Positions 5,461 to 60,652 are shown, counted from the stretch's first letter. The stretch: 64,000 bases of DNA from Bacilli bacterium (GCA_045113315.1 JBGUIX010000010.1:3248-67247); one strand, 5' to 3'. Translations and numbers: made by a program. Notes: generated from the letters alone by a model not told the origin.

Positions 5461-7212
5461 TTAATCAGGATATTTTTCTCTCTTAGAATTGTAGTGAGTG
5501 TGTAATAATTCTTCACTTAATTCTGATAGAGGTTCACCAAGGAATTCCTTATATAATTTTTGAATATCCTTGTTATTGTGAGATTGTCTAATAACTTGTC
5601 TTTCATCTTCGCTATATAAGACACTCGCACGTTTTTGACGATAAGTATCTAAGATATCATCATCTTCATTTGGTAATAAGGATGGTTGAACATATGGTTG
5701 ACCACCACCGTTAATACATCCACCTGGGCAGCCCATAATTTCGATAAAGGCATATGGAGATTTACCTTCTTTAACTTCTTGGACTAATTTAGAAGCGTTC
5801 TTCATACCAGAAGCGATCGCTACTTTAATACCAAGTTCTTTAATTTCGGCTTCTCTAACACCTTCTAAACCACGGACATTTTCAAATACGATTTTATCGT
5901 ATTCTTTACCAGTTAAGACGAAGTAAGCAGTTCTTAAAGCCGCTTCCATAACACCACCGGTAACACCGAAGATAACACCAGCGCCAGAATAATCACCTAA
6001 TAAGTCAGCATCAAATTCTTCTTCTGGTAATTTTTGCCAGTTAATACCGGAACGTTTGATCATCTTAGCTAATTCACGTGTGGTTAAAACAGCGTCGACA
6101 TCGTGATCCATTTCTGGACGTTGTCTTTCATATTTTTTCGCTGTACAAGGCATAATGGAAACCACAAAAATATCTTTAGGATCTAAATCATGTTTCTTTG
6201 CGAAATAAGATTTAATAATCGCACCCATCATCATATGTGGTGATTTACATGTTGAGATATGTGGGATGATTTCTGGATAGAAATATTCCATATAGTTAAT
6301 CCAACCTGGTGAACAGGATGTGATTTGTGGTAATACACCTTTATTCTTAATTCTATGAATTAATTCATAGCCTTCTTCCATGATGGTTAAGTCCGCACCG
6401 AAGTTTGTGTCAAAGACACGATAGAAACCTAAACGGTGTAAAGCGGCAACCATTTTACCAGTACCAGGAGTGCCAATCTTTTCGCCGAATTCTTCAGCGA
6501 TAGCAGCTCTGACAGCAGGAGCGGTTTGAACAATAACTTTCTTACCACTTCTAAAGGCTTCATCAACCTTTTCAATTTCACTATGCTCCATTAACGCACC
6601 GACAGGACAGACGTTAACGCATTGTCCACATTGCATACATGGGACATTAGCAAAGCTTCTATTTTGGACAGGACCAACAATGGTCTTAAAGCCACGATTT
6701 TCAAAACCTAAGATAGAAATACCTTGGGCTTCTTTACATCTTTCAATACATCTACCGCATAAAATACATTTTGCAGTATTTCTAATGATGCCAGGAGCGA
6801 CTTCGTCATAAGTCTTTTCTGTGGTTTGACCAACATATTTACCTTCTCTAGCACCGACCATTTCAGCGACATGTAATAATTCGCAGTGTCCATTTTTTGG
6901 ACATTGTAAGCAGTTTTTCTCGTGATTAGAGAGGATTAATTCCACACTAGCTCTACGAGCTTCTACTGCTTTTGGTGAAGAAATAGAGATTTCCATTCCT
7001 TCATTAACTGGATAAACGCATGAGGCGCATAATCCACGAGCGCCTTTGACTTCCACTAAACAAACACGGCAGCTTGCTCTAGAGCATTTACCATGATTGA
7101 AAGCACATAAGGAAGGGATTTCATAGCCGCATTTACGGCATGCTTCTAAGACGGTCAAAGAATTATCAACTTGATAATCGCGACCTTCGATTTTGATATT
7201 TACTAAAGCCAT
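5461..7212 (-). CDS. hydA: [FeFe] hydrogenase catalytic subunit (HydA/HndD type)
   Basis: N-terminal 2Fe-2S and multiple 4Fe-4S Cys clusters. H-cluster motifs MPCTAKKYE and EIMGCPGGCINGGGQP are present; the first motif reads TSCSPGW. A C-terminal small-subunit-like tail is present. RBS GGAGG. Confidence 0.9.
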   Translation of the reverse strand: MALVNIKIEGRDYQVDNSLTVLEACRKCGYEIPSLCAFNHGKCSRASCRVCLVEVKGARGLCASCVYPVNEGMEISISSPKAVEARRASVELILSNHEKNCLQCPKNGHCELLHVAEMVGAREGKYVGQTTEKTYDEVAPGIIRNTAKCILCGRCIERCKEAQGISILGFENRGFKTIVGPVQNRSFANVPCMQCGQCVNVCPVGALMEHSEIEKVDEAFRSGKKVIVQTAPAVRAAIAEEFGEKIGTPGTGKMVAALHRLGFYRVFDTNFGADLTIMEEGYELIHRIKNKGVLPQITSCSPGWINYMEYFYPEIIPHISTCKSPHMMMGAIIKSYFAKKHDLDPKDIFVVSIMPCTAKKYERQRPEMDHDVDAVLTTRELAKMIKRSGINWQKLPEEEFDADLLGDYSGAGVIFGVTGGVMEAALRTAYFVLTGKEYDKIVFENVRGLEGVREAEIKELGIKVAIASGMKNASKLVQEVKEGKSPYAFIEIMGCPGGCINGGGQPYVQPSLLPNEDDDILDTYRQKRASVLYSEDERQVIRQSHNNKDIQKLYKEFLGEPLSELSEELLHTHYNSKREKYPD

Positions 7213-7224
7213 AATCTTTCCTCC

Positions 7225-9114
7225 TTATCTTTTAACAATCGCGCCGAATTTACATCCAGCCATACAGCTACCACATTTCACACACTTATTTGGATCGATG
7301 TGATGAACAAATTTATTTGGAATTTTAGCTGGTTGATCAGTAGGTGTAATACAACCAACTGGGCAGTTTCTTGCACATAATGTACAACCCATACATTTTT
7401 CTGGAAGAATATAGTATTCCATCATGTTTTTGCAAACATGAGCAGGACATTTATGATCCCTAACATGAGCTTCATATTCTTCTGGGAAAGCTTTCATCGT
7501 GGAAAGAATTGGGTTAGTTGCGGTTTGGCCTAAAGCACATAAGGAGTTAGATTGAATGAATTTCGCTAATTCTTTCAAATCTTCTAAATCCTTTTCTTCA
7601 CCTTTACCATCGCAGATCTTGGTTAAGATATCTAAACATCTTCTGGTACCAATACGACATGGAGAGCATTTACCACATGATTCATCGCAGATAAATGTCA
7701 TATAGAATTTAGCGACGTCCACCATACAGTTATCTTCATCCATAACAATGGCACCACCAGAGCCCATCATACTTCCAGCGGCTATTAAGCTACCAAAGTC
7801 GATTGGTGTATCTAAGTCTTTTTCGGTTAAGCATCCACCAGATGGACCGCCTGTTTGAATGGCTTTGAATTTCTTACCACCAGGGATACCGCCACCGATA
7901 TCATAGATTAATTGTCTTAAGGTAGTTCCCATAGGAACTTCAACTAAGCCAACGTTATTCACTTTGCCACCTAAAGCAAAGACTTTTGTACCTTTAGTGT
8001 CGTCTGTACCAATACTAGCAAATTTCTCCCATCCTTCTCTTAAGATGAATGGAACACAGGCTAAAGTTTCGACGTTATTAACGACAGATGGATGTCCCCA
8101 TAAACCTTTCACCGCTGGGAATGGAGGACGAGGACGTGGCATACCACGTTTACCTTCAATGGAATTGATTAAGGCAGTTTCTTCACCACATACGAAGGCG
8201 CCTGCACCTAATCTAATATGACAGCGGAATGAGAAGTCTGTACCTAAGATGTGATCACCTAAAATACCAATTTCTTCCAATTCTTTAATCGCTTTTGCTA
8301 AACGTTTAACAGCGATTGGATATTCGGCTCTGACGTAGAAATAACCATCATTGGCGCCAATCGCATAACCAGCGATCATCATACCTTCGATAACCGCACA
8401 TGGATTTCCTTCAATAATAGAACGATCCATGAAGGCTCCTGGGTCACCTTCGTCACCATTACAAATCATGTATTTTGGTTCGTCAGTGTCAGGAACAAAT
8501 GACCACTTTCTTCCTGTTGGGAAGCCAGCGCCACCTCTACCTCTTAATCCAGATTTTAAAACTTCATCGATGACTTCTTTTCTAGTCATATGTAAGGCTC
8601 TATTTAAGCCTTGGAAAGCACCGTTACCAATTGCTTCATCAATATCTTCTGGATTGATTTCACCATTACCATGTAAAGCGATATCTCTTCTTTGTAATTT
8701 ATAGAAGTTAATATCGTGTTGTTTTTGCACATGTTCTTTAGTTTGAGGATCAATAAATAATAATCTGGTGACAATTTCGTTATTTAAGATATCTTTCTCA
8801 AAGATTTCTTCCGCATCAGATGGTTTCACCTTTGTGTACAAGGTTTCTTCTGGGAAGATTTTGACGAATGGGCCTTGAGAACAGAAACCGAAACATCCAA
8901 CGATGTTAGCGGTCACTTTATCTTCTAAACCATTCTTTTTAATTAATTCTTGGAATTTTTCTAAGGTCACTTGGCTGTCCGCGGATAAACAACCGGTACC
9001 ACCACAGACGACGATCGCTTTATGACCGGGTTCACAGTGGAATTTCTTTTGTAAACAACTACCGCAGTGGTTAAATCTCTCTTGGAGTTCTTTTTCATTA
9101 TTAATACGATTCAT
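7225..9114 (-). CDS. hydB: Hydrogenase flavoprotein subunit, NuoF-like (HydB/HndC)
   Basis: N-terminal thioredoxin-like 2Fe-2S part. NuoF core with GAGAFVCGEETALINSIEG and GRGGAGFPTG. CGKCSPCR cluster, and a C-terminal 2x[4Fe-4S] ferredoxin domain (CMGCTLCARNCP, CVKCGSCMAGC). Confidence 0.9.
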   Translation of the reverse strand: MNRINNEKELQERFNHCGSCLQKKFHCEPGHKAIVVCGGTGCLSADSQVTLEKFQELIKKNGLEDKVTANIVGCFGFCSQGPFVKIFPEETLYTKVKPSDAEEIFEKDILNNEIVTRLLFIDPQTKEHVQKQHDINFYKLQRRDIALHGNGEINPEDIDEAIGNGAFQGLNRALHMTRKEVIDEVLKSGLRGRGGAGFPTGRKWSFVPDTDEPKYMICNGDEGDPGAFMDRSIIEGNPCAVIEGMMIAGYAIGANDGYFYVRAEYPIAVKRLAKAIKELEEIGILGDHILGTDFSFRCHIRLGAGAFVCGEETALINSIEGKRGMPRPRPPFPAVKGLWGHPSVVNNVETLACVPFILREGWEKFASIGTDDTKGTKVFALGGKVNNVGLVEVPMGTTLRQLIYDIGGGIPGGKKFKAIQTGGPSGGCLTEKDLDTPIDFGSLIAAGSMMGSGGAIVMDEDNCMVDVAKFYMTFICDESCGKCSPCRIGTRRCLDILTKICDGKGEEKDLEDLKELAKFIQSNSLCALGQTATNPILSTMKAFPEEYEAHVRDHKCPAHVCKNMMEYYILPEKCMGCTLCARNCPVGCITPTDQPAKIPNKFVHHIDPNKCVKCGSCMAGCKFGAIVKR

Positions 9115-9116
9115 AA

Positions 9117-9599
9117 TTAAGCCTCCTTAGCGCGATATTCTGCAATAATGTTTTTAACATTATCAACTTTCACTTGTGGATAAACTTTGCCGTTAATACT
9201 AACAGCGGGAGCGACCGCACAAGCACCAATACAACGCAAGACGTCAATTGTGAATAAGCCGTCTGGGGTTGTTTCGCCTGGTTTGATGTTTAATAGTTCC
9301 GCGAATTTATCGAGTACTAAATTGCTACCCTTAACATAGCAAGCAGTACCTAAACAGACACCGACAACATATTTGCCTTTAGGTGTCATAGAGAAGAAGG
9401 AATAAAATGTTACAACACCATAGATTTCACTAACTGGTACACCGGTTAATTTGCTGACTAATTCTTGAACTTCTAATGGAATATAACCATATTCTTTTTG
9501 AATGTCTTCAAGAATCATCATCGTCGATGTTGGTTCATCTTTATACCTTTCTACAATTTCTGTAATAAGTTTTACAGCTTGAGGTTGTAATTTTGCCAT
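9117..9599 (-). CDS. hydC: Hydrogenase 2Fe-2S subunit, NuoE-like (HydC/HndA)
   Basis: 160 aa with the NuoE-type pattern CLGTACYVKG ... LRCIGACAVAP. Tightly packed ahead of hydB. Confidence 0.9.
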   Translation of the reverse strand: MAKLQPQAVKLITEIVERYKDEPTSTMMILEDIQKEYGYIPLEVQELVSKLTGVPVSEIYGVVTFYSFFSMTPKGKYVVGVCLGTACYVKGSNLVLDKFAELLNIKPGETTPDGLFTIDVLRCIGACAVAPAVSINGKVYPQVKVDNVKNIIAEYRAKEA

Positions 9600-11643: not shown

Positions 11644-12060
11644 ATGTTAGCCTCCAAGTGGTATTGATTTTATCATTAAAAATTATATTTGAATATTTTA
11701 ACGATATAAAAATATTTATTAAGCAAAGTAAGAAATTTAAAAAATCATTTTCCGACAATTGTATAAAACGTTACCTAATTTCTTAAAAAATAGTGTTATT
11801 TAAGCAATCTTATATAAATAAATTTATATATAGTAAAATCATAATCATAAATTAGGTTAATAATTTTATTTTTCTTGTATATATCACTACTTTTTTGTGT
11901 TTTTTCGACACTGTATAAACTTCAAATTGTTTTGCTTGTTTACCTATAAGTAAATTGATAAAGTTTATACACATTCCATTTAAGAGGCATCTTAGAAGGA
12001 AATTTCTTAAAAACACTTTAGAAAGGTGTTTTTCTATCACCATAAAGGAGTGAGCTTTTT

Positions 12061-14430
12061 ATGCTAAAAATTTTAAAAAGAAGCGGAAACGTCGAACCGT
12101 TTGACATCAAAAAAATCGAAAGAGCGATAGAAAAAGCATTCTTCGCTGAACACAAAGTTTATACACCAGACGTCATTGAAATGTTAGCACTTAGAACAGT
12201 GGCTATTTTTAATGGCAAAGCAAAAAACGAAACTATCGGAGTGGAAGATGTTCAAGACGCTGTTGAAGTAGCCTTGATCCAAGCCGGTTTTGTGGATGTA
12301 GCAAAAAGTTACATCATCTATCGTAAACAACATCAAAATTTAAGAGAACTTAAAACCACAAACTTAGATTATAAGAATGTTGTTAATAACTACTTAAAAA
12401 TTAATGACTGGAGAGTTAAGGAAAACTCCACTGTTACCTATTCTGTGGGTGGCTTAATTCTTTCTAACTCTGGTGCAGTCACCGCTAACTACTGGTTAAG
12501 TGAAGTATATGATAAGGAAATCGCGGACGCGCATAGAAATGCTGATATCCACATCCATGACTTATCCATGTTAACTGGTTATTGTGCAGGTTGGTCATTA
12601 AAACAATTAATCCAAGAAGGTTTAGGTGGTGTCGTTGGAAAGATTACATCCGCTCCAGCTGCTCACTTATCCACTTTATGTAATCAAATGGTTAACTTCT
12701 TAGGTATCATGCAAAATGAATGGGCTGGTGCACAAGCCTTCTCATCCTTTGATACCTATCTAGCCCCATTTGTGAAAGTTGATAACTTAACATATAAACA
12801 AGTTAAACAATGTATCCAATCCTTCATCTATGGTGTTAATACACCATCCAGATGGGGTACTCAAGCGCCATTTACCAATATCACCCTTGACTGGGTTGTT
12901 CCAAACGATATGGCGGAACTTAACTGTATCGTCGGTGGTAAAGAAATGCCATTTAAATATAAAGATTGTGTCGAAGAAATGGCGATGGTTAACAAAGCCT
13001 TCATTGAAATCATGATCGAAGGTGACGCTAACGGAAGAGGATTCCAATATCCTATCCCAACCTATTCCATTACCAAGACATTTGACTGGTCAGAAACTGA
13101 AAATAATAAATTATTATTCGAAATGACCGCCAAATACGGTACACCATATTTCTCTAACTACATCAATTCCGATATGGAACCAAGTGATGTGAGAAGTATG
13201 TGCTGCCGTTTAAGATTAGACTTAAGAGAATTAAGAAAGAAATCAGGTGGTTTCTTCGGTTCTGGCGAATCTACCGGTTCTATCGGTGTTGTCACTATCA
13301 ATATGCCAAGAATCGCTTATTTAGCCACTGATGAAGCTGATTTCTATCAAAGATTAGATCATATTATGGATATCTCTGCTCGTTCACTTAAAGTGAAGAG
13401 AAATACCGTCACTGCTTTATTAGAAGCAGGTTTATATCCATATACTAAGAGATATTTAGGTACATTTAATAACCACTTCTCCACCATCGGTTTAGTGGGT
13501 ATGAATGAAGCTTGTTTAAATGCTCGTTGGTTAAAGAAAGATTTAACACATAAAGAATCCATTCAATTTACTAAAGATGTGCTCAATCACATGAGAAGTA
13601 AATTATCTGATTACCAAGAATTATATGGTGATTTATATAACTTAGAAGCTACCCCTGCGGAATCCACAGCTTACCGTTTAGCTAAACACGATAAAGCTAA
13701 ATTCCCAGATATCATTACCGCTAATGAGGATGGTATGACTCCATATTATACAAATTCATCTCACTTACCAGTCGGTTATACCGAAGATGTATTTAAAGCT
13801 TTAGACATCCAAGATGGTTTACAAACTTTATATACATCAGGAACAGTTTTCCACTGCTTCTTAGGTCAAAAATTACCTTCTTGGAAATCTTGTATGAATT
13901 TCGTTAGAAAGATCGCGGAAAACTATCATATTCCTTATTACACAATGTCGCCAACATACTCTGTATGTAAAGAACATGGTTATTTAGTTGGTGAACAATT
14001 CGTTTGTCCACACTGTGGTCAAAAAGCGGAAGTTTATTCCCGTATTACCGGTTACTATCGTCCAATTCAAAACTGGAACGATGGTAAAACCGCTGAATAC
14101 CATAACCGTAAAGAATATGAACCAGAGAATTCTCATTTAACACATACTTTAATTAATGAAGAATGTGCGCAAGAAGAAAAGACAAGTGACGAATCATTAA
14201 ATGAAATCTTATTATTCGCCACAAAAACTTGTCCAAACTGTAAGATGGCCAAAATGCTTTTAGATAAAGCTGGTATCCACTACACAGTTATCGATGCGGA
14301 AGATAATAAAGAAAAGACTTTAAAATATAAAGTCAACAAAGCACCAACCCTTATCGTTCCTAACGAAAATGGCTACGATGTCTTTGAAAACGCATCCAAC
14401 ATCAAAGGATATATAGAAAGTATCAACTAA
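12061..14430 (+). CDS. nrdD: Anaerobic (class III) ribonucleoside-triphosphate reductase with a C-terminally fused thioredoxin-fold CxxC domain
   Basis: N-terminal ATP-cone-like segment, Zn-ribbon CPHCG and glycyl-radical motif SRITGYYRP. These are followed by an acidic linker and a 76-aa module (14200-14427) with CPNC at 14230-14241. RBS AAGGAG. Confidence 0.9.
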   Translation: MLKILKRSGNVEPFDIKKIERAIEKAFFAEHKVYTPDVIEMLALRTVAIFNGKAKNETIGVEDVQDAVEVALIQAGFVDVAKSYIIYRKQHQNLRELKTTNLDYKNVVNNYLKINDWRVKENSTVTYSVGGLILSNSGAVTANYWLSEVYDKEIADAHRNADIHIHDLSMLTGYCAGWSLKQLIQEGLGGVVGKITSAPAAHLSTLCNQMVNFLGIMQNEWAGAQAFSSFDTYLAPFVKVDNLTYKQVKQCIQSFIYGVNTPSRWGTQAPFTNITLDWVVPNDMAELNCIVGGKEMPFKYKDCVEEMAMVNKAFIEIMIEGDANGRGFQYPIPTYSITKTFDWSETENNKLLFEMTAKYGTPYFSNYINSDMEPSDVRSMCCRLRLDLRELRKKSGGFFGSGESTGSIGVVTINMPRIAYLATDEADFYQRLDHIMDISARSLKVKRNTVTALLEAGLYPYTKRYLGTFNNHFSTIGLVGMNEACLNARWLKKDLTHKESIQFTKDVLNHMRSKLSDYQELYGDLYNLEATPAESTAYRLAKHDKAKFPDIITANEDGMTPYYTNSSHLPVGYTEDVFKALDIQDGLQTLYTSGTVFHCFLGQKLPSWKSCMNFVRKIAENYHIPYYTMSPTYSVCKEHGYLVGEQFVCPHCGQKAEVYSRITGYYRPIQNWNDGKTAEYHNRKEYEPENSHLTHTLINEECAQEEKTSDESLNEILLFATKTCPNCKMAKMLLDKAGIHYTVIDAEDNKEKTLKYKVNKAPTLIVPNENGYDVFENASNIKGYIESIN

Positions 14431-14431
14431 T

Positions 14432-15352
14432 ATGTACGATGTCATCATTATCGGTGGCGGTCCTGCTGGAATGGCAGTCGCTTTAAATACACTTAGAAAT
14501 GGACGCACCTGTCTCCTTTTAGAAAAGGAGAATTTTGGTGGTCAAATGGCGACTTCTCCAAAACTAGAGAACATTCCAGGCATCAAAGCGATATCCGGAA
14601 TCGAATATAGCGATAAGATGTTTGAACAGATCACCGATATGGGGGCGGAGTTCGAACTTGAAGAAGTAGAATCTATCACAAAAGAAGAAGAAAAATTCAT
14701 CGTTAAAACTAATTACAACACCTATGAATCTTGGACTGTTGTTTTAGCAAATGGATGTCACCATCGTAAGATGAACTTACCACATGAAGATGATTTAGTG
14801 GGTAAAGGTGTCTCTTATTGTGCAGTTTGTGATGGAGCTTTCTATAAAGGTCAAACCACAAACATCATCGGAGATGCTAATACAGCGTTACAATATGCTT
14901 TATTACTTAGTAATTATTGCCCCACTGTTAATGTCTTTGCTTTATTTGATCATCTATTTGGGGATCAAATCTTAATTCAAAGAATTAATGATAATCCAAA
15001 TATCCATGTTAGATATAATGTTTCTTTACAAGAATTCATCGGTGAAGAAGAATTAAAAGCTTTACGCTTCTTTGATAAATCAAATAACGAAGAATTTACC
15101 GTTGAAACAAACAATGTCTTTGTCGCTATTGGCCAAATCCCTTGTAACGAGCCATTTAAAGATTTAGTGGAATTAGATAATAAAGGATTTGTCATCACTA
15201 ATGACAATATGGAAACTTCTTGTCCAGGTGTCTACGCCGTAGGCGATACAAGAAAAAAAGACATCCGCCAAGTAGTAACTGCTTTGGGTGATGCCAGTGT
15301 GGCTAGTGTCTATATCAATAGATATTTACAATCATTAAATAGAAATGATTAA
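14432..15352 (+). CDS. Thioredoxin-reductase-like flavoprotein lacking the NADPH-binding motifs
   Basis: FAD motif IIIGGGPAG and redox CAVCDG (14819-14830). The NADPH site reads IIGDANTA instead of GGGNSA, and the HRR motif is replaced (VFALFDHLF). The gene starts 1 nt after the nrdD stop. Confidence 0.8.
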   Translation: MYDVIIIGGGPAGMAVALNTLRNGRTCLLLEKENFGGQMATSPKLENIPGIKAISGIEYSDKMFEQITDMGAEFELEEVESITKEEEKFIVKTNYNTYESWTVVLANGCHHRKMNLPHEDDLVGKGVSYCAVCDGAFYKGQTTNIIGDANTALQYALLLSNYCPTVNVFALFDHLFGDQILIQRINDNPNIHVRYNVSLQEFIGEEELKALRFFDKSNNEEFTVETNNVFVAIGQIPCNEPFKDLVELDNKGFVITNDNMETSCPGVYAVGDTRKKDIRQVVTALGDASVASVYINRYLQSLNRND

Positions 15353-15373
15353 AGGATTGCTTCGGCAATTCTT

Positions 15374-15625
15374 TTATTTATATAAATTCTTTAATCTTTC
15401 GTTTGGTTCTGGAGGATTGTCCATTAGCTCTAAAAACAAATCTCTCTCACTATTATCTAAAATAATGGATTGATTTCTCATATCGTTTCTAACTTGTTTC
15501 ATCATTGCATCATAAATATAGGCTGGTAATGTTTGATGCTTTAGATCCGCGGCCATATTTAAAAACTCTTTCTCATTATCAGAAAGATAAATATTTATTT
15601 CATTTGTCTTTTTAAAAATAGCCAT
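15374..15625 (-). CDS. DUF1778 / TacA-like ribbon-helix-helix protein (antitoxin-like, no cognate toxin gene nearby)
   Basis: 83 aa. The pattern (LSDNEKEFLNMAADLKHQTLPAYIYDAMM ... IILDNSERDLFLELMDNPPEPNERLKNL) resembles TacA-family antitoxins. RBS GGAGAA. Confidence 0.5.
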   Translation of the reverse strand: MAIFKKTNEINIYLSDNEKEFLNMAADLKHQTLPAYIYDAMMKQVRNDMRNQSIILDNSERDLFLELMDNPPEPNERLKNLYK

Positions 15626-15675
15626 GGAATTTCTCCATAGCTATTATAACATTTATATCGATAATTTCACGCTTA

Positions 15676-16368
15676 TTAGTAGCCTCTTAAATTAACTGAG
15701 TGAATAGTTTCGCTTAATATATCTTTGAAATGTTCGGCTTTTTCTTCGCTCACTTCGTGAAAACCATGAGCGATGCAACTTTCACGATCCACATATTTTT
15801 GAAGATACATTCTTTTAGCCCCTTTAATTAATTGGGCCATCTTTTTAATATCTTCTTCATTATGGAATTCATCAATGATTGTGGTTCTAAATTCATATTC
15901 ATATGGTGAATTAATTAAAAAATTAATTGTTTCTTTAATCTTATCCATATAAACATTTTTAGCACCTGCGGTTAAAGGATATTTTTTCTCGCTATTTTTA
16001 ATATCCATCGCTACATAATCAATTAATTTATTTTCAAATAAATATTTCACTAATTCTGGGTTAGTGCCATTAGTGTCTAATTTCACTAAATAACCTAATT
16101 CTTTAATCTGTTTTATCTTATCCACTAAATCGGGCATTAAAGTGGGTTCGCCACCACTCACCACAACTGCATCGATTAAACCTTTTCTTTGTCTTAAATA
16201 GGCTAAAATATCATCAAAAGGAATAAAAGTATCCGCCTCTAAGACTGTTTGTCCGTTATGACAAAAAGGACATCTAAAATTGCAAGCTTTAGAAAATAAG
16301 ACAACAGCAACTTTGTCTTCATAATCTAATAATGAAAATTTATCTATCCCTACAAAGTCCATGCACAT
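15676..16368 (-). CDS. nrdG: Anaerobic RNR activating enzyme (radical SAM)
   Basis: CNFRCPFCHN (CxxxCxxC) and GGEPTL. 230 aa; the alternative ATG two codons downstream is equally possible. Confidence 0.85.
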   Translation of the reverse strand: MCMDFVGIDKFSLLDYEDKVAVVLFSKACNFRCPFCHNGQTVLEADTFIPFDDILAYLRQRKGLIDAVVVSGGEPTLMPDLVDKIKQIKELGYLVKLDTNGTNPELVKYLFENKLIDYVAMDIKNSEKKYPLTAGAKNVYMDKIKETINFLINSPYEYEFRTTIIDEFHNEEDIKKMAQLIKGAKRMYLQKYVDRESCIAHGFHEVSEEKAEHFKDILSETIHSVNLRGY

Positions 16369-16431: not shown

Positions 16432-16911
16432 ATGATTAAAAGTAATATTTCCTGGGATGAATATTTTATGGGCATCGCTGTGCTCTCCAGCATGCGTAGT
16501 AAGGATCCCAACACCAAAGTGGGAGCGTGTATCGTGGATGAAAATCATAAAGTGGTTTCCATCGGTTATAACGGCATGCCATGTGGATGCGATGAAAGCC
16601 AATTATCTTGGAATAAAGGTACAGGTTTAGATAGCAAATATCTTTATGTTTGCCACGCGGAATTTAACGCTATTTTAAATACCAGAAATGGTACTTCTGC
16701 GTTAAAAGGTTGCACCGTTTATGTGACATTATTCCCATGCAATGAATGCACTAAAGCCATTATTCAAACCGGAATTAAAGAAGTTGTTTATATTTCTAAT
16801 AAATATGAAACCACGACTGAAACTCAAGCTTCGTTAAGAATGTTAACACTTGCTGGAGTCAAGATTCGTCATTACGAAGGAAGAATTCCTGAAATTAATT
16901 ATGACCGTTAA
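16432..16911 (+). CDS. comEB: dCMP deaminase
   Basis: Zn-deaminase motifs HAEFNAI and PCNECTKAI. 159 aa. Confidence 0.85.
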   Translation: MIKSNISWDEYFMGIAVLSSMRSKDPNTKVGACIVDENHKVVSIGYNGMPCGCDESQLSWNKGTGLDSKYLYVCHAEFNAILNTRNGTSALKGCTVYVTLFPCNECTKAIIQTGIKEVVYISNKYETTTETQASLRMLTLAGVKIRHYEGRIPEINYDR

Positions 16912-17689
16912 AGAATACGTTAACTTTAGAAAAGACGAGATGAAAAATCTCGTTTTAAAAATGGATAAAAAACCATGCATCGCGATCGTCCAAGTTAATG
17001 AAGACGCTGGTAGCAATGCTTATGTTAAAGGGAAATTAAAAGACGCGAATGAATTAGGCATAAATGCTGATTTAATCAAATTACCTTTAGATACTAAACA
17101 GGAAGAATTATTAGAAATCATTGATCAATTAAATAAAGATAAAGTTCATGACGGCTTTATCGTTCAAATGCCTCTACCTAAAGGAATAGATGAAGAAACC
17201 ATCAAATTAGCGGTATCTCCTAATAAAGATGTGGATGGCTTCCATCCATTAAGTAAATTATCTCCATGTACCCCAAAAGGGATCATGAATTATTTATATC
17301 ATGAAAACATCCCAATATTAGGTAAAAACGCGGTTGTTATCGGTAGAAGTAATATCGTTGGTAAACCGATGGCGAAACTCTTATTAAAAGAAAGTGCGAA
17401 TGTCACTGTTTTACATAGTAAAACTTCATTTGAGGATATGTCTAGATATATCGAAAACGCTGATATCATTGTTATCGCGATTGGAAAAAAGCACTTCTTA
17501 GATAATAAATTTAAATATAAAAAATCCGCAGTCATCATAGATGTTGGTATATCTAGAGATGAATCCGGATTACATGGTGATGCCTTACCTGATTTACCAG
17601 TTTATTTACAAACACCGGTACCAGGTGGTGTAGGACTATTAACTAGATTAGCCCTATATGAGAACCTATTAGAACTTGTATCAAAATAA
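16901..17689 (+). CDS. folD: Bifunctional methylene-THF dehydrogenase / methenyl-THF cyclohydrolase
   Basis: YVKGKLKD, VIGRSNIVGKPMA and PVPGGVGLLT. The start is set at ATG 16901 (MTVKEY), which overlaps the upstream gene by 11 nt. Confidence 0.9.
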   Translation: MTVKEYVNFRKDEMKNLVLKMDKKPCIAIVQVNEDAGSNAYVKGKLKDANELGINADLIKLPLDTKQEELLEIIDQLNKDKVHDGFIVQMPLPKGIDEETIKLAVSPNKDVDGFHPLSKLSPCTPKGIMNYLYHENIPILGKNAVVIGRSNIVGKPMAKLLLKESANVTVLHSKTSFEDMSRYIENADIIVIAIGKKHFLDNKFKYKKSAVIIDVGISRDESGLHGDALPDLPVYLQTPVPGGVGLLTRLALYENLLELVSK

Positions 17690-31885: not shown

Positions 31886-33157
31886 TTAGAGTTTTTCAAC
31901 GGTTTCTTGCAAAACCATTTTCTTTAAATTCTTTTCTTTTCTTCCTGGTTTTAAAACTCTTTCACCAGGTTTAATCGCTCCAACTGGGCACACAAGTCCA
32001 CATAATAAACAACCAACACATTTATCATGGTTACAATTTGGACGACGTGTTTCTTTATTCCATTCCATAGCTTGGTGAGCGCCGTCATAACAGGAGATAA
32101 CGCATCTTCCACAGCCAACACATTTATCGGAATTAATTTCTGGATAGACGATATAATCTCTATCAAGTTCTTCCGCTGGAATGATATTTTTATTAGCTAA
32201 TCCGACTAAGTCTTCTAAATGATCGACGCCTTGTTCTTCCATATAGTGCTCTAAGCCGTTTTTCATATCTTCAACGATACGATAGCCATATTGCATAATA
32301 CCTGTGGTAACTTGTAAGTTTTTACAACCTAATAAGATAAATTCTGCAGCATCTTCCCAAGTTTCGATACCACCGATACCGGAGATATCTACATCCTTAA
32401 GTTTTGGATTAGTTTTCATCTGTTGAATAAATCTTAAGGCCACTGGTTTAACAGCTTTACCAGAATAACCAGAAATAGAGGATTTACCATTAATAATTGG
32501 TAAACCAACTTTCTTATCTAAATCAACATTGATAATAGATTTAATGGTGTTAATAGCCGCGATACCATCCGCTCCACCTTCGATAGAAGCGATGGCAGGA
32601 TCACACATATCAGTGATATTTGGTGTCATCTTGGCCATGAATGGTAATTTGGTACTTCTTCTAACAGCCGCGCAGTATTTACGGCAAAGTTCAGGATTAC
32701 TACCAACATCGCTACCCATCGCATGAGAAGTCATCTGTGGACAGGAGAAATTTAATTCAATCATATCCGCACCGGCTTCGGTGACAAGTCTAGCTAATTC
32801 TTCCCAGTCTTTTTCATTACTACCCATAATTGAGGCGATAAGAACGTTATTTGGGAATTCTTTTTTAAGTCTTCTTAAGTCCGCTAAATTTTCTTCTAAA
32901 GAGTGTTCAGCGATCTGTTCCATGTTTTTAAAACCAACAAATGGTTCCGCTTCTTTTGTTAAAGCGTCAAAACGAGGAGAAACTTCATCGATTAAATAAT
33001 GTTTTGGACCAATTGTCTTAAAGACAACTCCACCCCAACCACTACGATAGGCTTTCGCACACATGTCATAGCAGTTACCAACTGGGGAAGATGATAAACA
33101 GAATGGGTTTGGGAATTTAACACCCATGAAGGTAATGGATAAATCTTTTCTAACCAT
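31886..33157 (-). CDS. preA: NAD-dependent dihydropyrimidine dehydrogenase subunit PreA (DHODH-like plus 2x[4Fe-4S])
   Basis: FMN barrel (NFSCPQ, GIAAINT, GIGGI) and a C-terminal ferredoxin domain ([23 protein letters not shown]). Confidence 0.85.
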
Positions 33158-59364: not shown

Positions 59365-59502
59365 TTAATCTATCTTTTCAAATAAGTCTTTTCCGACTCC
59401 GCAGACTGGACAGGTGAAGTCTTCTGGTAACTCTTCTTCTTCGGTTTCATAAACATAACCACAGACTGTGCATTTGAAATGATGCAATTTTTTCTCATCC
59501 AT
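59365..59502 (-). CDS. Rubredoxin
   Basis: 45 aa from ATG 59502 with CTVCGY ... CPVCG. RBS AGGAGG. The longer tracked ORF overlaps the upstream gene and is not needed. Confidence 0.85.
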
Positions 59503-59515
59503 TCGATATTTCCTC

Positions 59516-60652
59516 CTAATTCTTCTCAAAATAAATTCTATAGTAAATACTCTGATAATGCGACAAAGATACAACATGACCTTTATCATCGACATCGGTA
59601 TCTGTGTCTATATAAGATGTTGTTCCTTCTTTTTGCCCAAAAGTTTTTAAATACCAATCGTTAACTTTATCACCAAAGTCCGCTAAGAAGGCTTGTCCTT
59701 TCCAATGTTCATAAATGAAATGGAAGTTTTTTAAAACATCATCACTATGCAATGAATTTACATAGTTAATGTCTTCTTTATTTTCACTTAATCTCACTAA
59801 ATCAATAATTCGATCAATTGTGTTGTAATAAGCAGAATATCTAATATATGGATCGCTACTTCTTAAACATATTTCACTGGCTAATATCTGTGCGTCATCC
59901 TCTCTCATTACTCCTAAACCATGACACATCTCATGGGCGATATAAAATGGCTTTTCACCATTCGTGGAGAAAGTGGAATAATTAGCCTCTCCTAAAGGAC
60001 CAAAATACATACCCACGATTGATACTGTCGTAAAGAGATGAGAGCTTAATAAAGGCTTTGCCTTTGGAACGGTAGAAAAATAATAAGAATTATTTAATTT
60101 AGTGAATTCTTTTCTTAAGTTAGAAATTAAAATTTCATCAGTGTAAGGGGCTTTTATTTCTCCTTTTTCGTCAATTCCTAATTCATTTACGCAGTGATTC
60201 ATATCTTCTACAAAGTAAGAAGCGATATCTTTAAATTTTGCTTTATCAATTTCCCCCGTATATCTATCCACTGGTAAGGCTTTTCTTTTATAAGCCATGC
60301 CTACACTTAAATCGTAAACCGCTACTGTGGAAACAATCACTAGTGTGACTAATAAGAAACGATTAATCGCTTCCCAATATTTTTTATTACCTAATAAGCA
60401 AAATCCCCAGGATAGATAAATAATTACAAAAATAATTAAAGATATAACACTTATCTCTGTTAAAGATAAACGGAAGGCTTCATTGATAGTTCTAAATACA
60501 TTTGTATAGCCTTTTCCAAAGCTTCTCGTCCAAGCTTCCGCTATATCGCTATTATTTGATAAAACATTCATGACAATCATTAAAATGATTACCATGATTA
60601 AAACGATAGTCATAATCACAAAACCTTTATGATTTTTCATGAATTTTTTCAT
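59516..60652 (-). CDS. DUF3810-type membrane zinc metallopeptidase
   Basis: N-terminal TM helices and [16 protein letters not shown] (HExxH plus downstream E). Confidence 0.65.

Follow-up and report, generated by a model that had tools for sequence, protein, structure and literature searches.

A 64,000-nucleotide stretch from a Bacilli bacterium (GCA_045113315.1 JBGUIX010000010.1:3248-67247; hereafter the window) encodes, at 12061..14430 on the plus strand, a class III ribonucleotide reductase (RNR), NrdD, whose catalytic core is continued in the same reading frame by a small redoxin. This frame of 789 amino acids (aa) runs without interruption, a gene for a thioredoxin reductase (TrxR)-like flavoprotein begins 1 nt past its stop codon (TAA-T-ATG), and nrdG is encoded on the opposite strand, ~1.25 kb downstream. 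An earlier note on this DNA, made from the sequence alone, had described the unbroken core/module junction, the 1-nt spacing and nrdG 1.2 kb further on, and each of these readings stands. The comparisons reported here indicate that the locus probably encodes a thiol-dependent, NrdD2-type class III RNR with its own disulfide reductant tethered at the C terminus and recharged by the flavoprotein. The features of the locus are as follows.

12061..14430, plus strand: fusion gene of nrdD and redoxin, 789 aa plus stop (Pfam and NCBIfam matches)
12067..12336, plus strand: ATP-cone, residues 3-92 (PF03477, 77 bits)
12421..14118, plus strand: class III RNR catalytic core including the glycyl-radical domain, residues 121-686 (PF13597)
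12580..12585, plus strand: Y174-C175, bottom-face cysteine preceded by tyrosine (aligns with Thermotoga maritima NrdD Y124-C125)
13198..13209, plus strand: thiyl (finger) loop M380-C381-C382-R383 (aligns with T. maritima 328-SCCR-331)
13639..13647, plus strand: N527-L528-E529, candidate active-site glutamate of the NrdD2 signature (alignment and invariance)
13966..14016, plus strand: zinc ribbon C636-x2-H639 ... C649-x2-C652 (CKEH...CPHC, residues 636-652; read from the sequence)
14041..14055, plus strand: glycyl-radical motif R661-I-T-G664-Y665 (read from the sequence; G664 invariant)
14122..14199, plus strand: acidic linker, residues 688-713 (7 acidic residues, 1 basic)
14200..14427, plus strand: Trx/Grx-fold redoxin module, residues 714-789 (PF00462 above cut-off)
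14230..14241, plus strand: CPNC, C724/C727 (read from the sequence)
14341..14352, plus strand: cis-Pro motif APTL, P762 (read from the sequence)
14432..15352, plus strand: TrxR-like flavoprotein gene, 306 aa (Pfam and NCBIfam matches)
14453..14470, plus strand: flavin adenine dinucleotide (FAD) motif GGGPAG (read from the sequence)
14819..14830, plus strand: redox pair CAVC (read from the sequence)
14870..14887, plus strand: GDANTA in place of GGGDSA (alignment to canonical TrxRs)
14939..14959, plus strand: ALFDHLF in place of HRRDxLR (alignment to canonical TrxRs)
15351..15374, plus strand: terminator-like hairpin ending the nrdD-trxR-like pair (consensus scan only)
15676..16368, minus strand: nrdG, radical-SAM activase, with CNFRCPFC at 16261-16284 (TIGR02495 (NrdG2), 198 bits, cut-off 131)

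The product of 12061..14430 belongs to the class III RNRs (NrdD), with which the family scores, the radical motif and zinc ribbon, the predicted barrel and the presence of NrdG all agree. PF13597 (NRDD) matches over its whole model length at 630 bits (cut-off 26), and the NCBIfam models PRK08270 and TIGR02487 match at 1118 bits (cut-off 548) and 513 bits (cut-off 326). The core ends normally, as the earlier note had read it, with the ribbon residues C636, H639, C649 and C652, which are invariant or nearly so among fused orthologs, and then RITG664Y. A first AlphaFold2 run, whose multiple sequence alignment held relatives 85-97% identical in the core, gave a predicted local distance difference test score (pLDDT) of 58.9 and an unusable core; a second run, with the alignment rebuilt with T. 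maritima-clade sequences, gave pLDDT 78.3 and a predicted template modelling (pTM) score of 0.70. The ten-stranded RNR barrel fold is supported by Foldseek template modelling (TM) scores of 0.72-0.75 between the AlphaFold2 model and the T4 and T. maritima NrdD. The ATP-cone, an allosteric on/off domain, was modelled at pLDDT ~69-94 per 10-residue block, mostly >80.

The fusion is not rare: it occurs widely among gut Firmicutes and also on viral contigs. More than 120 clusters (90% identity), drawn from ENA, NCBI, JGI and Logan assemblies, have this architecture at ~789 aa and are 84-97% identical, their named members being labelled ‘MAG: Bacilli bacterium’. When representatives at 50% identity were searched exhaustively with the final 189 aa as query, 76 matches were returned at E <= 1e-30, and about half of the top 150 matches have the glycyl-radical motif followed by a tail of 110-250 aa with CP[NK]C. 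A profile of the tail matched 2546 clusters at E <= 1e-10 in a large protein database, and almost every one of its 120 best matches is annotated as NRDD plus Glutaredoxin or Thioredoxin. A profile built from the redoxin alone (A1) diverged too much for seeding a genome scan, and the whole-tail profile (A2) took its place. The 80 best genome loci, one genome per GTDB species, form the set of orthologs used below; the whole tail is covered and the module is in frame in 80/80, and the loci come from Bacilli, Christensenellales, Oscillospiraceae, Acutalibacteraceae and Lachnospiraceae, with the cultured Butyrivibrio sp. INlla16 among them. On viral contigs, 41 of 64 IMG/VR loci encode the fusion with a CP[NK]C redoxin. 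The earlier note had named a stop missed at the junction as fatal to the fusion. We reject such an assembly or sequencing artefact, in which an overlooked stop or frameshift would separate nrdD from a small redoxin gene of its own, as having practically no chance of being correct, the same in-frame architecture recurring in >120 independent clusters, all 80 species representatives, 2546 profile matches and 41 viral contigs.

Other forms of the fusion were also seen. Many of the 41 viral fusions are ~670 aa long, without an ATP-cone and with nearly no linker, and in some viral fusions the CxxC lies 39-48 residues past RxxGY, compared with 63 in the window protein. Much longer NrdD-redoxin fusions of 1041-1608 aa (P0132, P0134, P0138, P0142, P0144 and P0214) may contain inteins or additional N-terminal domains. 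The top match of the tail profile, a 202-aa protein (P0271) with several Trx-fold Pfam matches and no NRDD domain, may represent a relative of the fused module that stands alone or occurs in tandem.

The fused module lies exactly where the earlier note had placed it (76 aa at 14200-14427, with CPNC at 14230-14241). Pfam assigns PF00462 (Glutaredoxin) to residues 716-752 at 33.3 bits, its scores of 33-37 bits being above the cut-off of 22.9, and 37 of 38 diverse modules match the same model. In the better AlphaFold2 model, residues 717-788 are predicted to fold as beta-alpha-beta-alpha-beta-beta-alpha at pLDDT ~71-87 per 10-residue block. A Trx/Grx fold calls for a CxxC where helix 1 begins and for a loop with a cis-Pro, to which C724/C727 and P762 answer. 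The domain search and structure prediction that the earlier note had suggested therefore both return a thioredoxin-fold module. The description of the module as NrdH/glutaredoxin-like holds for the fold and the CxxC, and less well for the affiliation: the closest proteins by profile are the ‘glutaredoxin-like’ units of Pyrococcus/Aquifex PDO and the Methanocaldococcus jannaschii thioredoxin MJ0307, followed by NrdH and Grx3. Small Trx-like proteins and NrdH are its nearest relatives of solved structure, and several of these are reduced by TrxR-type enzymes. Classical Grx motifs are CPYC with TVP and GG-x-DD, and those of NrdH are CVQC with WSGFRP; by inspection, neither the classical glutathione (GSH)-site motifs nor the NrdH motif set was seen in the module, which has CPNC and APTL, and it scores 17-31 bits against curated Grx/NrdH NCBIfam equivalogs whose cut-offs are 66-129. 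A classical GSH-dependent Grx or an NrdH was rejected on these scores and motifs.

Between core and module lies a linker of 26 aa (688-713; about 27 in the earlier note), acidic as claimed, with seven D/E against one K/R. Across the 80 orthologs its mean pairwise identity is 17%, the spacer from Y686 to L718 varies from 21 to 51 aa, and residues 698-710 were modelled at pLDDT <50. The redoxin module has a mean pairwise identity of 50%, compared with 83% for the core, and C724, N726, C727 and P762 are invariant where the column is covered. Because the CxxC and cis-Pro are invariant and the module keeps 50% identity, against 17% identity and 21-51 aa in the linker, the module is under selection and held on a tether of unconstrained sequence. 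Linker cysteines vary between orthologs: 27 of 69 contain two and a further 6 contain three or four (examples being CEAC, CASC and CKHC), the window linker has one, and CAAC, CNAC or CDLC occurs in some of the viral fusions. These cysteines might work as a shuttle dithiol in the manner of the class I/II RNR C-terminal tail, or form a metal site.

The core carries the residues expected of a thiol-dependent enzyme. In the scheme of Wei et al., as set out in the subtype passages of PMC4493059, NrdD2 has a third cysteine and a glutamate and NrdD1 has neither. For NrdD3, the Methanosarcina barkeri type, we took a third cysteine without the glutamate as the criterion. The bottom-face cysteine common to all RNRs corresponds to C175, and the pair Y174-C175 is invariant in both the fused clade and the T. 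maritima clade; where T4 has Asn78 the window protein has Tyr174, which it shares with T. maritima-type enzymes. In the finger loop, T. maritima 328-SCCR-331 has been equated with T4 288-MGCR-291 (loop comparison in PMC4493059), and alignment of the window loop to both therefore points to C382 as the thiyl-radical cysteine and C381 as the extra NrdD2 cysteine. E529 is invariant in the 80 fused orthologs and N-x-E in 81 T. maritima-clade sequences, and Prevotella copri NrdD, an enzyme assayed with formate, aligns a leucine at the E529 position. C175, C381, C382, E529 and G664 are all invariant in the fused orthologs where the column is covered. Because C175, C381-C382 and E529 align with the T. 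maritima-type signature, the core is assigned, on its residue set, to the thiol-dependent NrdD2 type. The subtype alignment proposed in the earlier note thus gives the NrdD2 set and not the plain formate set, with M380 nevertheless kept. An NrdD1 (formate subtype) assignment was rejected, the third cysteine and the glutamate both being present despite M380, as was NrdD3, E529 being present and invariant and the conserved neighbour being a TrxR-fold flavoprotein and not FTR-like.

The fusion and the flavoprotein are genomically associated in both directions, and the flavoprotein is a translationally coupled partner. In 72 of the 80 species the gene immediately downstream, in the same orientation, is TrxR-like (median gap 4 nt), which answers the co-occurrence survey proposed in the earlier note. 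In reverse, metagenome contigs scanned for DNA encoding LFDKFFGD gave 120 matches, 53 of them in TrxR-like open reading frames (ORFs), and the NrdD-redoxin tail precedes the signature-bearing ORF in 45/45 with >=250 nt upstream (gaps 2-133 nt), a sample that probably includes repeat samplings of the same organism. NrdG genes occur within the examined flanks of 55 of the 80 loci; beyond NrdG and the TrxR-like gene, no neighbour is conserved across the 80 loci.

The flavoprotein retains the TrxR fold, the FAD motif and the CAVC pair, as the thioredoxin-reductase-like label of the earlier note implied, but in alignment with canonical TrxRs of Bacillus cereus, Staphylococcus aureus and Methanosarcina mazei both of its motifs for NADPH (the reduced form of nicotinamide adenine dinucleotide phosphate) are replaced. 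[quoted passage not shown] The field recognizes a non-NTR by the loss of both GxGxxA and HRRxxxR (PMC10880999). Because both are replaced here, the flavoprotein is classed by motif as a non-NTR and not as a canonical NADPH thioredoxin reductase. The replacements are, as judged from the syntenic neighbours, conserved and not decayed: the neighbours keep their FAD motifs and CxxC pair, and most of them read GD[AG]N[TS]ALQY and [TA]LFD[KRH][FL]F[GA]D. A motif survey of 71 neighbours plus the window’s own protein placed 40 proteins, including the latter, in two xLFDxxF-type classes, with a few more showing near-variants; a Q[NDM]L...T variant occurs in ~12 neighbours (for example, L039, L060, L066 and L076), and 11 of 71 keep canonical GxGxxA/HRRxxxR (for example, L023, L038, L047, L050 and L051). 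Such variation of the cofactor site by lineage fits a reductase role in which the electron source may differ between lineages, and the variants offer a natural comparison set for finding the donor. For the window protein the donor is presumably not NAD(P)H, because it is without both NADPH-binding motifs, and our best guess is reduced ferredoxin or flavodoxin.

From these findings we infer which way electrons flow in the proposed thiol-dependent enzyme, which cysteines form the disulfide and what the donor is. NrdG would install the glycyl radical at G664, from which a thiyl radical at C382 would derive. At each turnover a disulfide would form between C175 and C381, protons probably being relayed by E529, and the tethered CPNC dithiol (C724/C727) would reduce that disulfide. 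The co-translated flavoprotein would then recharge the redoxin through FAD and CAVC, so that electrons would pass from a low-potential donor to FAD, CAVC, C724/C727 and finally the C175-C381 disulfide. The earlier note had proposed a self-contained electron delivery chain. A conserved, coupled partner reductase bears out part of that proposal; the chain is not self-contained, because both NADPH motifs of the neighbouring flavoprotein are replaced. The NrdD2 signature, the selected module, the 1-nt coupling and the association in 72/80 species and 45/45 reverse matches all favour the proposed scheme. There is also precedent in the Trx/TrxR support of Neisseria bacilliformis NrdD (reductant passages of PMC4493059) and in a Grx fused to NrdB that is a functional RNR reductant (PMC6187632).

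Several observations weigh against it. M380 stands at the position of T4 Met288, the finger-loop methionine which, in formate-type enzymes, joins the bottom cysteine in a thiosulfuranyl radical, and formate use would be compatible with the sequence because this residue is retained. E529 is tentatively taken by us to be the NrdD2-defining glutamate, from alignment and invariance together with the scheme that Wei et al. 2014 reportedly gave, and the finger loop (residues 361-402) was modelled at low confidence, pLDDT <50, even in the second AlphaFold2 model. Unrelated genes lie downstream in 8 of the 80 cellular loci, which have no adjacent TrxR-like gene, and 0/41 viral fusions have a TrxR-like neighbour; something else can evidently serve the redoxin. 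No conserved ferredoxin or flavodoxin gene was found near the fusion in the flanks of the 80 loci.

Some of these points would fit an enzyme in which formate drives turnover and the redoxin and flavoprotein only repair or regulate it, for example by reducing stray CC-loop disulfides after oxidative stress or by serving as a redox switch. M380 sits beside the conserved C175 and C382, where formate chemistry would place it, and the viral and cellular fusions without an adjacent reductase also speak for this reading. Yet the third cysteine and glutamate of thiol-dependent NrdD2 are invariant, Tyr174 stands where T4 has Asn78, as it does in T. maritima-type enzymes, and a repair-only role explains poorly both the translational coupling and the 45/45 reverse association, so we consider formate-driven turnover rather unlikely. 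It is likewise improbable that the flavoprotein is simply the general TrxR of the cell, with the module as one of several clients and the pairing a matter of co-expression in small genomes. Among solved structures it is nearest to ordinary bacterial TrxRs, canonical NADPH motifs persist in some neighbours (the 11 of 71 above), and no second TrxR or Trx gene was seen within the 64-kb window; but in the metagenome sample the xLFDxxF-type signature occurs only downstream of NrdD-redoxin genes, the score is below the curated TrxR cut-off, and conserved loss of the NADPH site is not expected of a housekeeping enzyme.

The tethered-redoxin scheme can be extended, as a tentative proposal to which we give somewhat less than even chances, to make the xLFDxxF-type flavoprotein a hitherto unrecognized TrxR-fold disulfide reductase independent of pyridine nucleotides, of separate origin from the FFTRs, existing only to recharge the tethered redoxin and tied to the ferredoxin/flavodoxin pool, with the CC loop swinging out to the redoxin. 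Some viral fusions leave nearly no linker, which hints that the mobile CC loop may come out to the redoxin instead of the redoxin entering the active site. If the proposal is true, the loop swing would explain viral fusions with linkers of only a few residues, and a pool of low-potential ferredoxin or flavodoxin would be directly coupled to deoxyribonucleotide (dNTP) synthesis in many gut Firmicutes.

Comparison with known systems sets the window proteins between several precedents. N. bacilliformis NrdD, an NrdD2, runs with TrxA, TrxB and NADPH (reductant passages of PMC4493059). It shares with the window enzyme the class III core, the CC thiyl loop and the active-site glutamate (candidate E529 here), and a dithiol protein in place of formate is its reductant, as is proposed here from sequence; however, its redoxin is a free general thioredoxin served by a canonical NADPH-dependent TrxR, whereas here the redoxin is tethered and the reductase is without NADPH motifs. 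Wei et al. in 2015 reportedly found M. barkeri NrdD3 to work with an NrdH-like redoxin and a ferredoxin:disulfide reductase. Like that system, the window operon appears to hold a dedicated redoxin and a dedicated, non-NADPH reductase (here by motif); unlike it, the window enzyme has a candidate for the glutamate, which NrdD3 lacks, a fused instead of a separate redoxin, and a TrxR-fold flavoprotein instead of an FTR-like iron-sulfur reductase. The NrdD3 reductant class is listed in Table 1 of PMC9176816. Facklamia ignava Grx::ATP-cone::NrdB (PMC6187632) likewise joins a glutaredoxin-fold domain to an RNR component, the reductant role being experimental there only, but it is a class I, GSH-dependent system with an N-terminal fusion on the radical-generating subunit, in contrast to the C-terminal fusion on a class III catalytic subunit here.

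Two further comparisons concern the flavoprotein and the core. FFTRs of Clostridium and Gloeobacter (PMC8154056, PMC10880999) share the TrxR fold, FAD, the CxxC and the absence of GxGxxA/HRRxxxR, whereas the window flavoprotein is nearer canonical NTRs (E 3e-64), has its own conserved replacement motifs and lacks a C-terminal tail extension. T. maritima NrdD (PDB 4COI, 4U3E) has the same signature residues (Y-C, CC-R and N-x-E), but neither the ATP-cone nor the fused redoxin, and a serine in place of Met380. Its CC loop is disordered or mobile and has been seen flipped from the barrel in crystals, and a protein reductant is required whose physiological identity is still to be established (PMC4493059).

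A Grx-NrdD fusion has been catalogued before. Table S1 of Rozman Grinberg et al. 2018 (PMC6187632) lists, without study, one Glutaredoxin:NrdD (grx::nrdD) from the Firmicute Lachnospiraceae bacterium TWA4 (WP_082039398.1), which, known from that listing alone, probably belongs to the same family as the window fusion. No characterization of an NrdD-redoxin fusion or of its flavoprotein partner was found in the literature searched, which included a 2022 RNR phylogeny and a 2026 glycyl radical enzyme review and left most subscription journals outside its coverage. The view in the earlier note that the arrangement is not known to have been characterized thus holds, with the amendment that one such fusion was already on record. 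We rate the covalent redoxin and the dedicated TrxR-like reductase without NADPH motifs as two unstudied features of a thiol-dependent class III RNR. The physiological reductant of such enzymes is settled in few cases only. Here the genome itself names the redoxin, by fusion, and its reductase, by coupling and two-way association, making the electron path testable with three recombinant proteins. The covalent tether could help to trap a redoxin-RNR encounter complex and so bears on the long-debated mobile CC loop, and the flavoprotein is a candidate new branch among TrxR enzymes without NADPH motifs. The system appears to be a major source of DNA precursors in uncultured gut Bacilli, in Christensenellales, Oscillospiraceae and Lachnospiraceae, and in their phages.

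The regulatory setting of the pair gave few signals. An AT-rich long leader precedes nrdD at 11644-12060, in which no NrdR box was found within <=3 mismatches despite the ATP-cone in the protein; a promoter scan returned results at chance level, and the window has no tRNA or Rfam matches. Between the TrxR-like gene and nrdG lies an 83-aa ORF for a TacA-like (PF08681) antitoxin (15374-15625, minus strand), with no adjoining toxin gene and with a homolog at the same position in 0/80 related loci.

Several nearby genes concern nucleotide or redox metabolism. Overlapping ORFs for a dCMP deaminase (16432-16911, plus strand) and FolD (16850-17689, plus strand) adjoin nrdG and make up a small nucleotide-metabolism cluster around the RNR. 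HydABC-like [FeFe] hydrogenase genes (5461-9599, minus strand; HydA-like 583 aa, NuoF-like 629 aa and NuoE-like 160 aa) lie 2.5 kb upstream of nrdD and resemble the electron-bifurcating type, pointing weakly and circumstantially to ferredoxin-linked redox metabolism in the organism. Motif scans of the window for electron carriers returned only this hydrogenase, dihydroorotate-dehydrogenase-like Fe-S proteins and one rubredoxin-like ORF. The last, an 80-aa ORF at 59365-59607 (minus strand) that is distant from the RNR genes, carries a rubredoxin-like domain (PF21349/PF00301) at its C terminus and is a possible small electron carrier. A 423-aa protein at 31886-33157 (minus strand) combines a dihydroorotate-dehydrogenase-like domain with a C-terminal 4Fe-4S dicluster and resembles PreA or dihydropyrimidine dehydrogenase, a further link between Fe-S proteins and nucleotide metabolism in the window.

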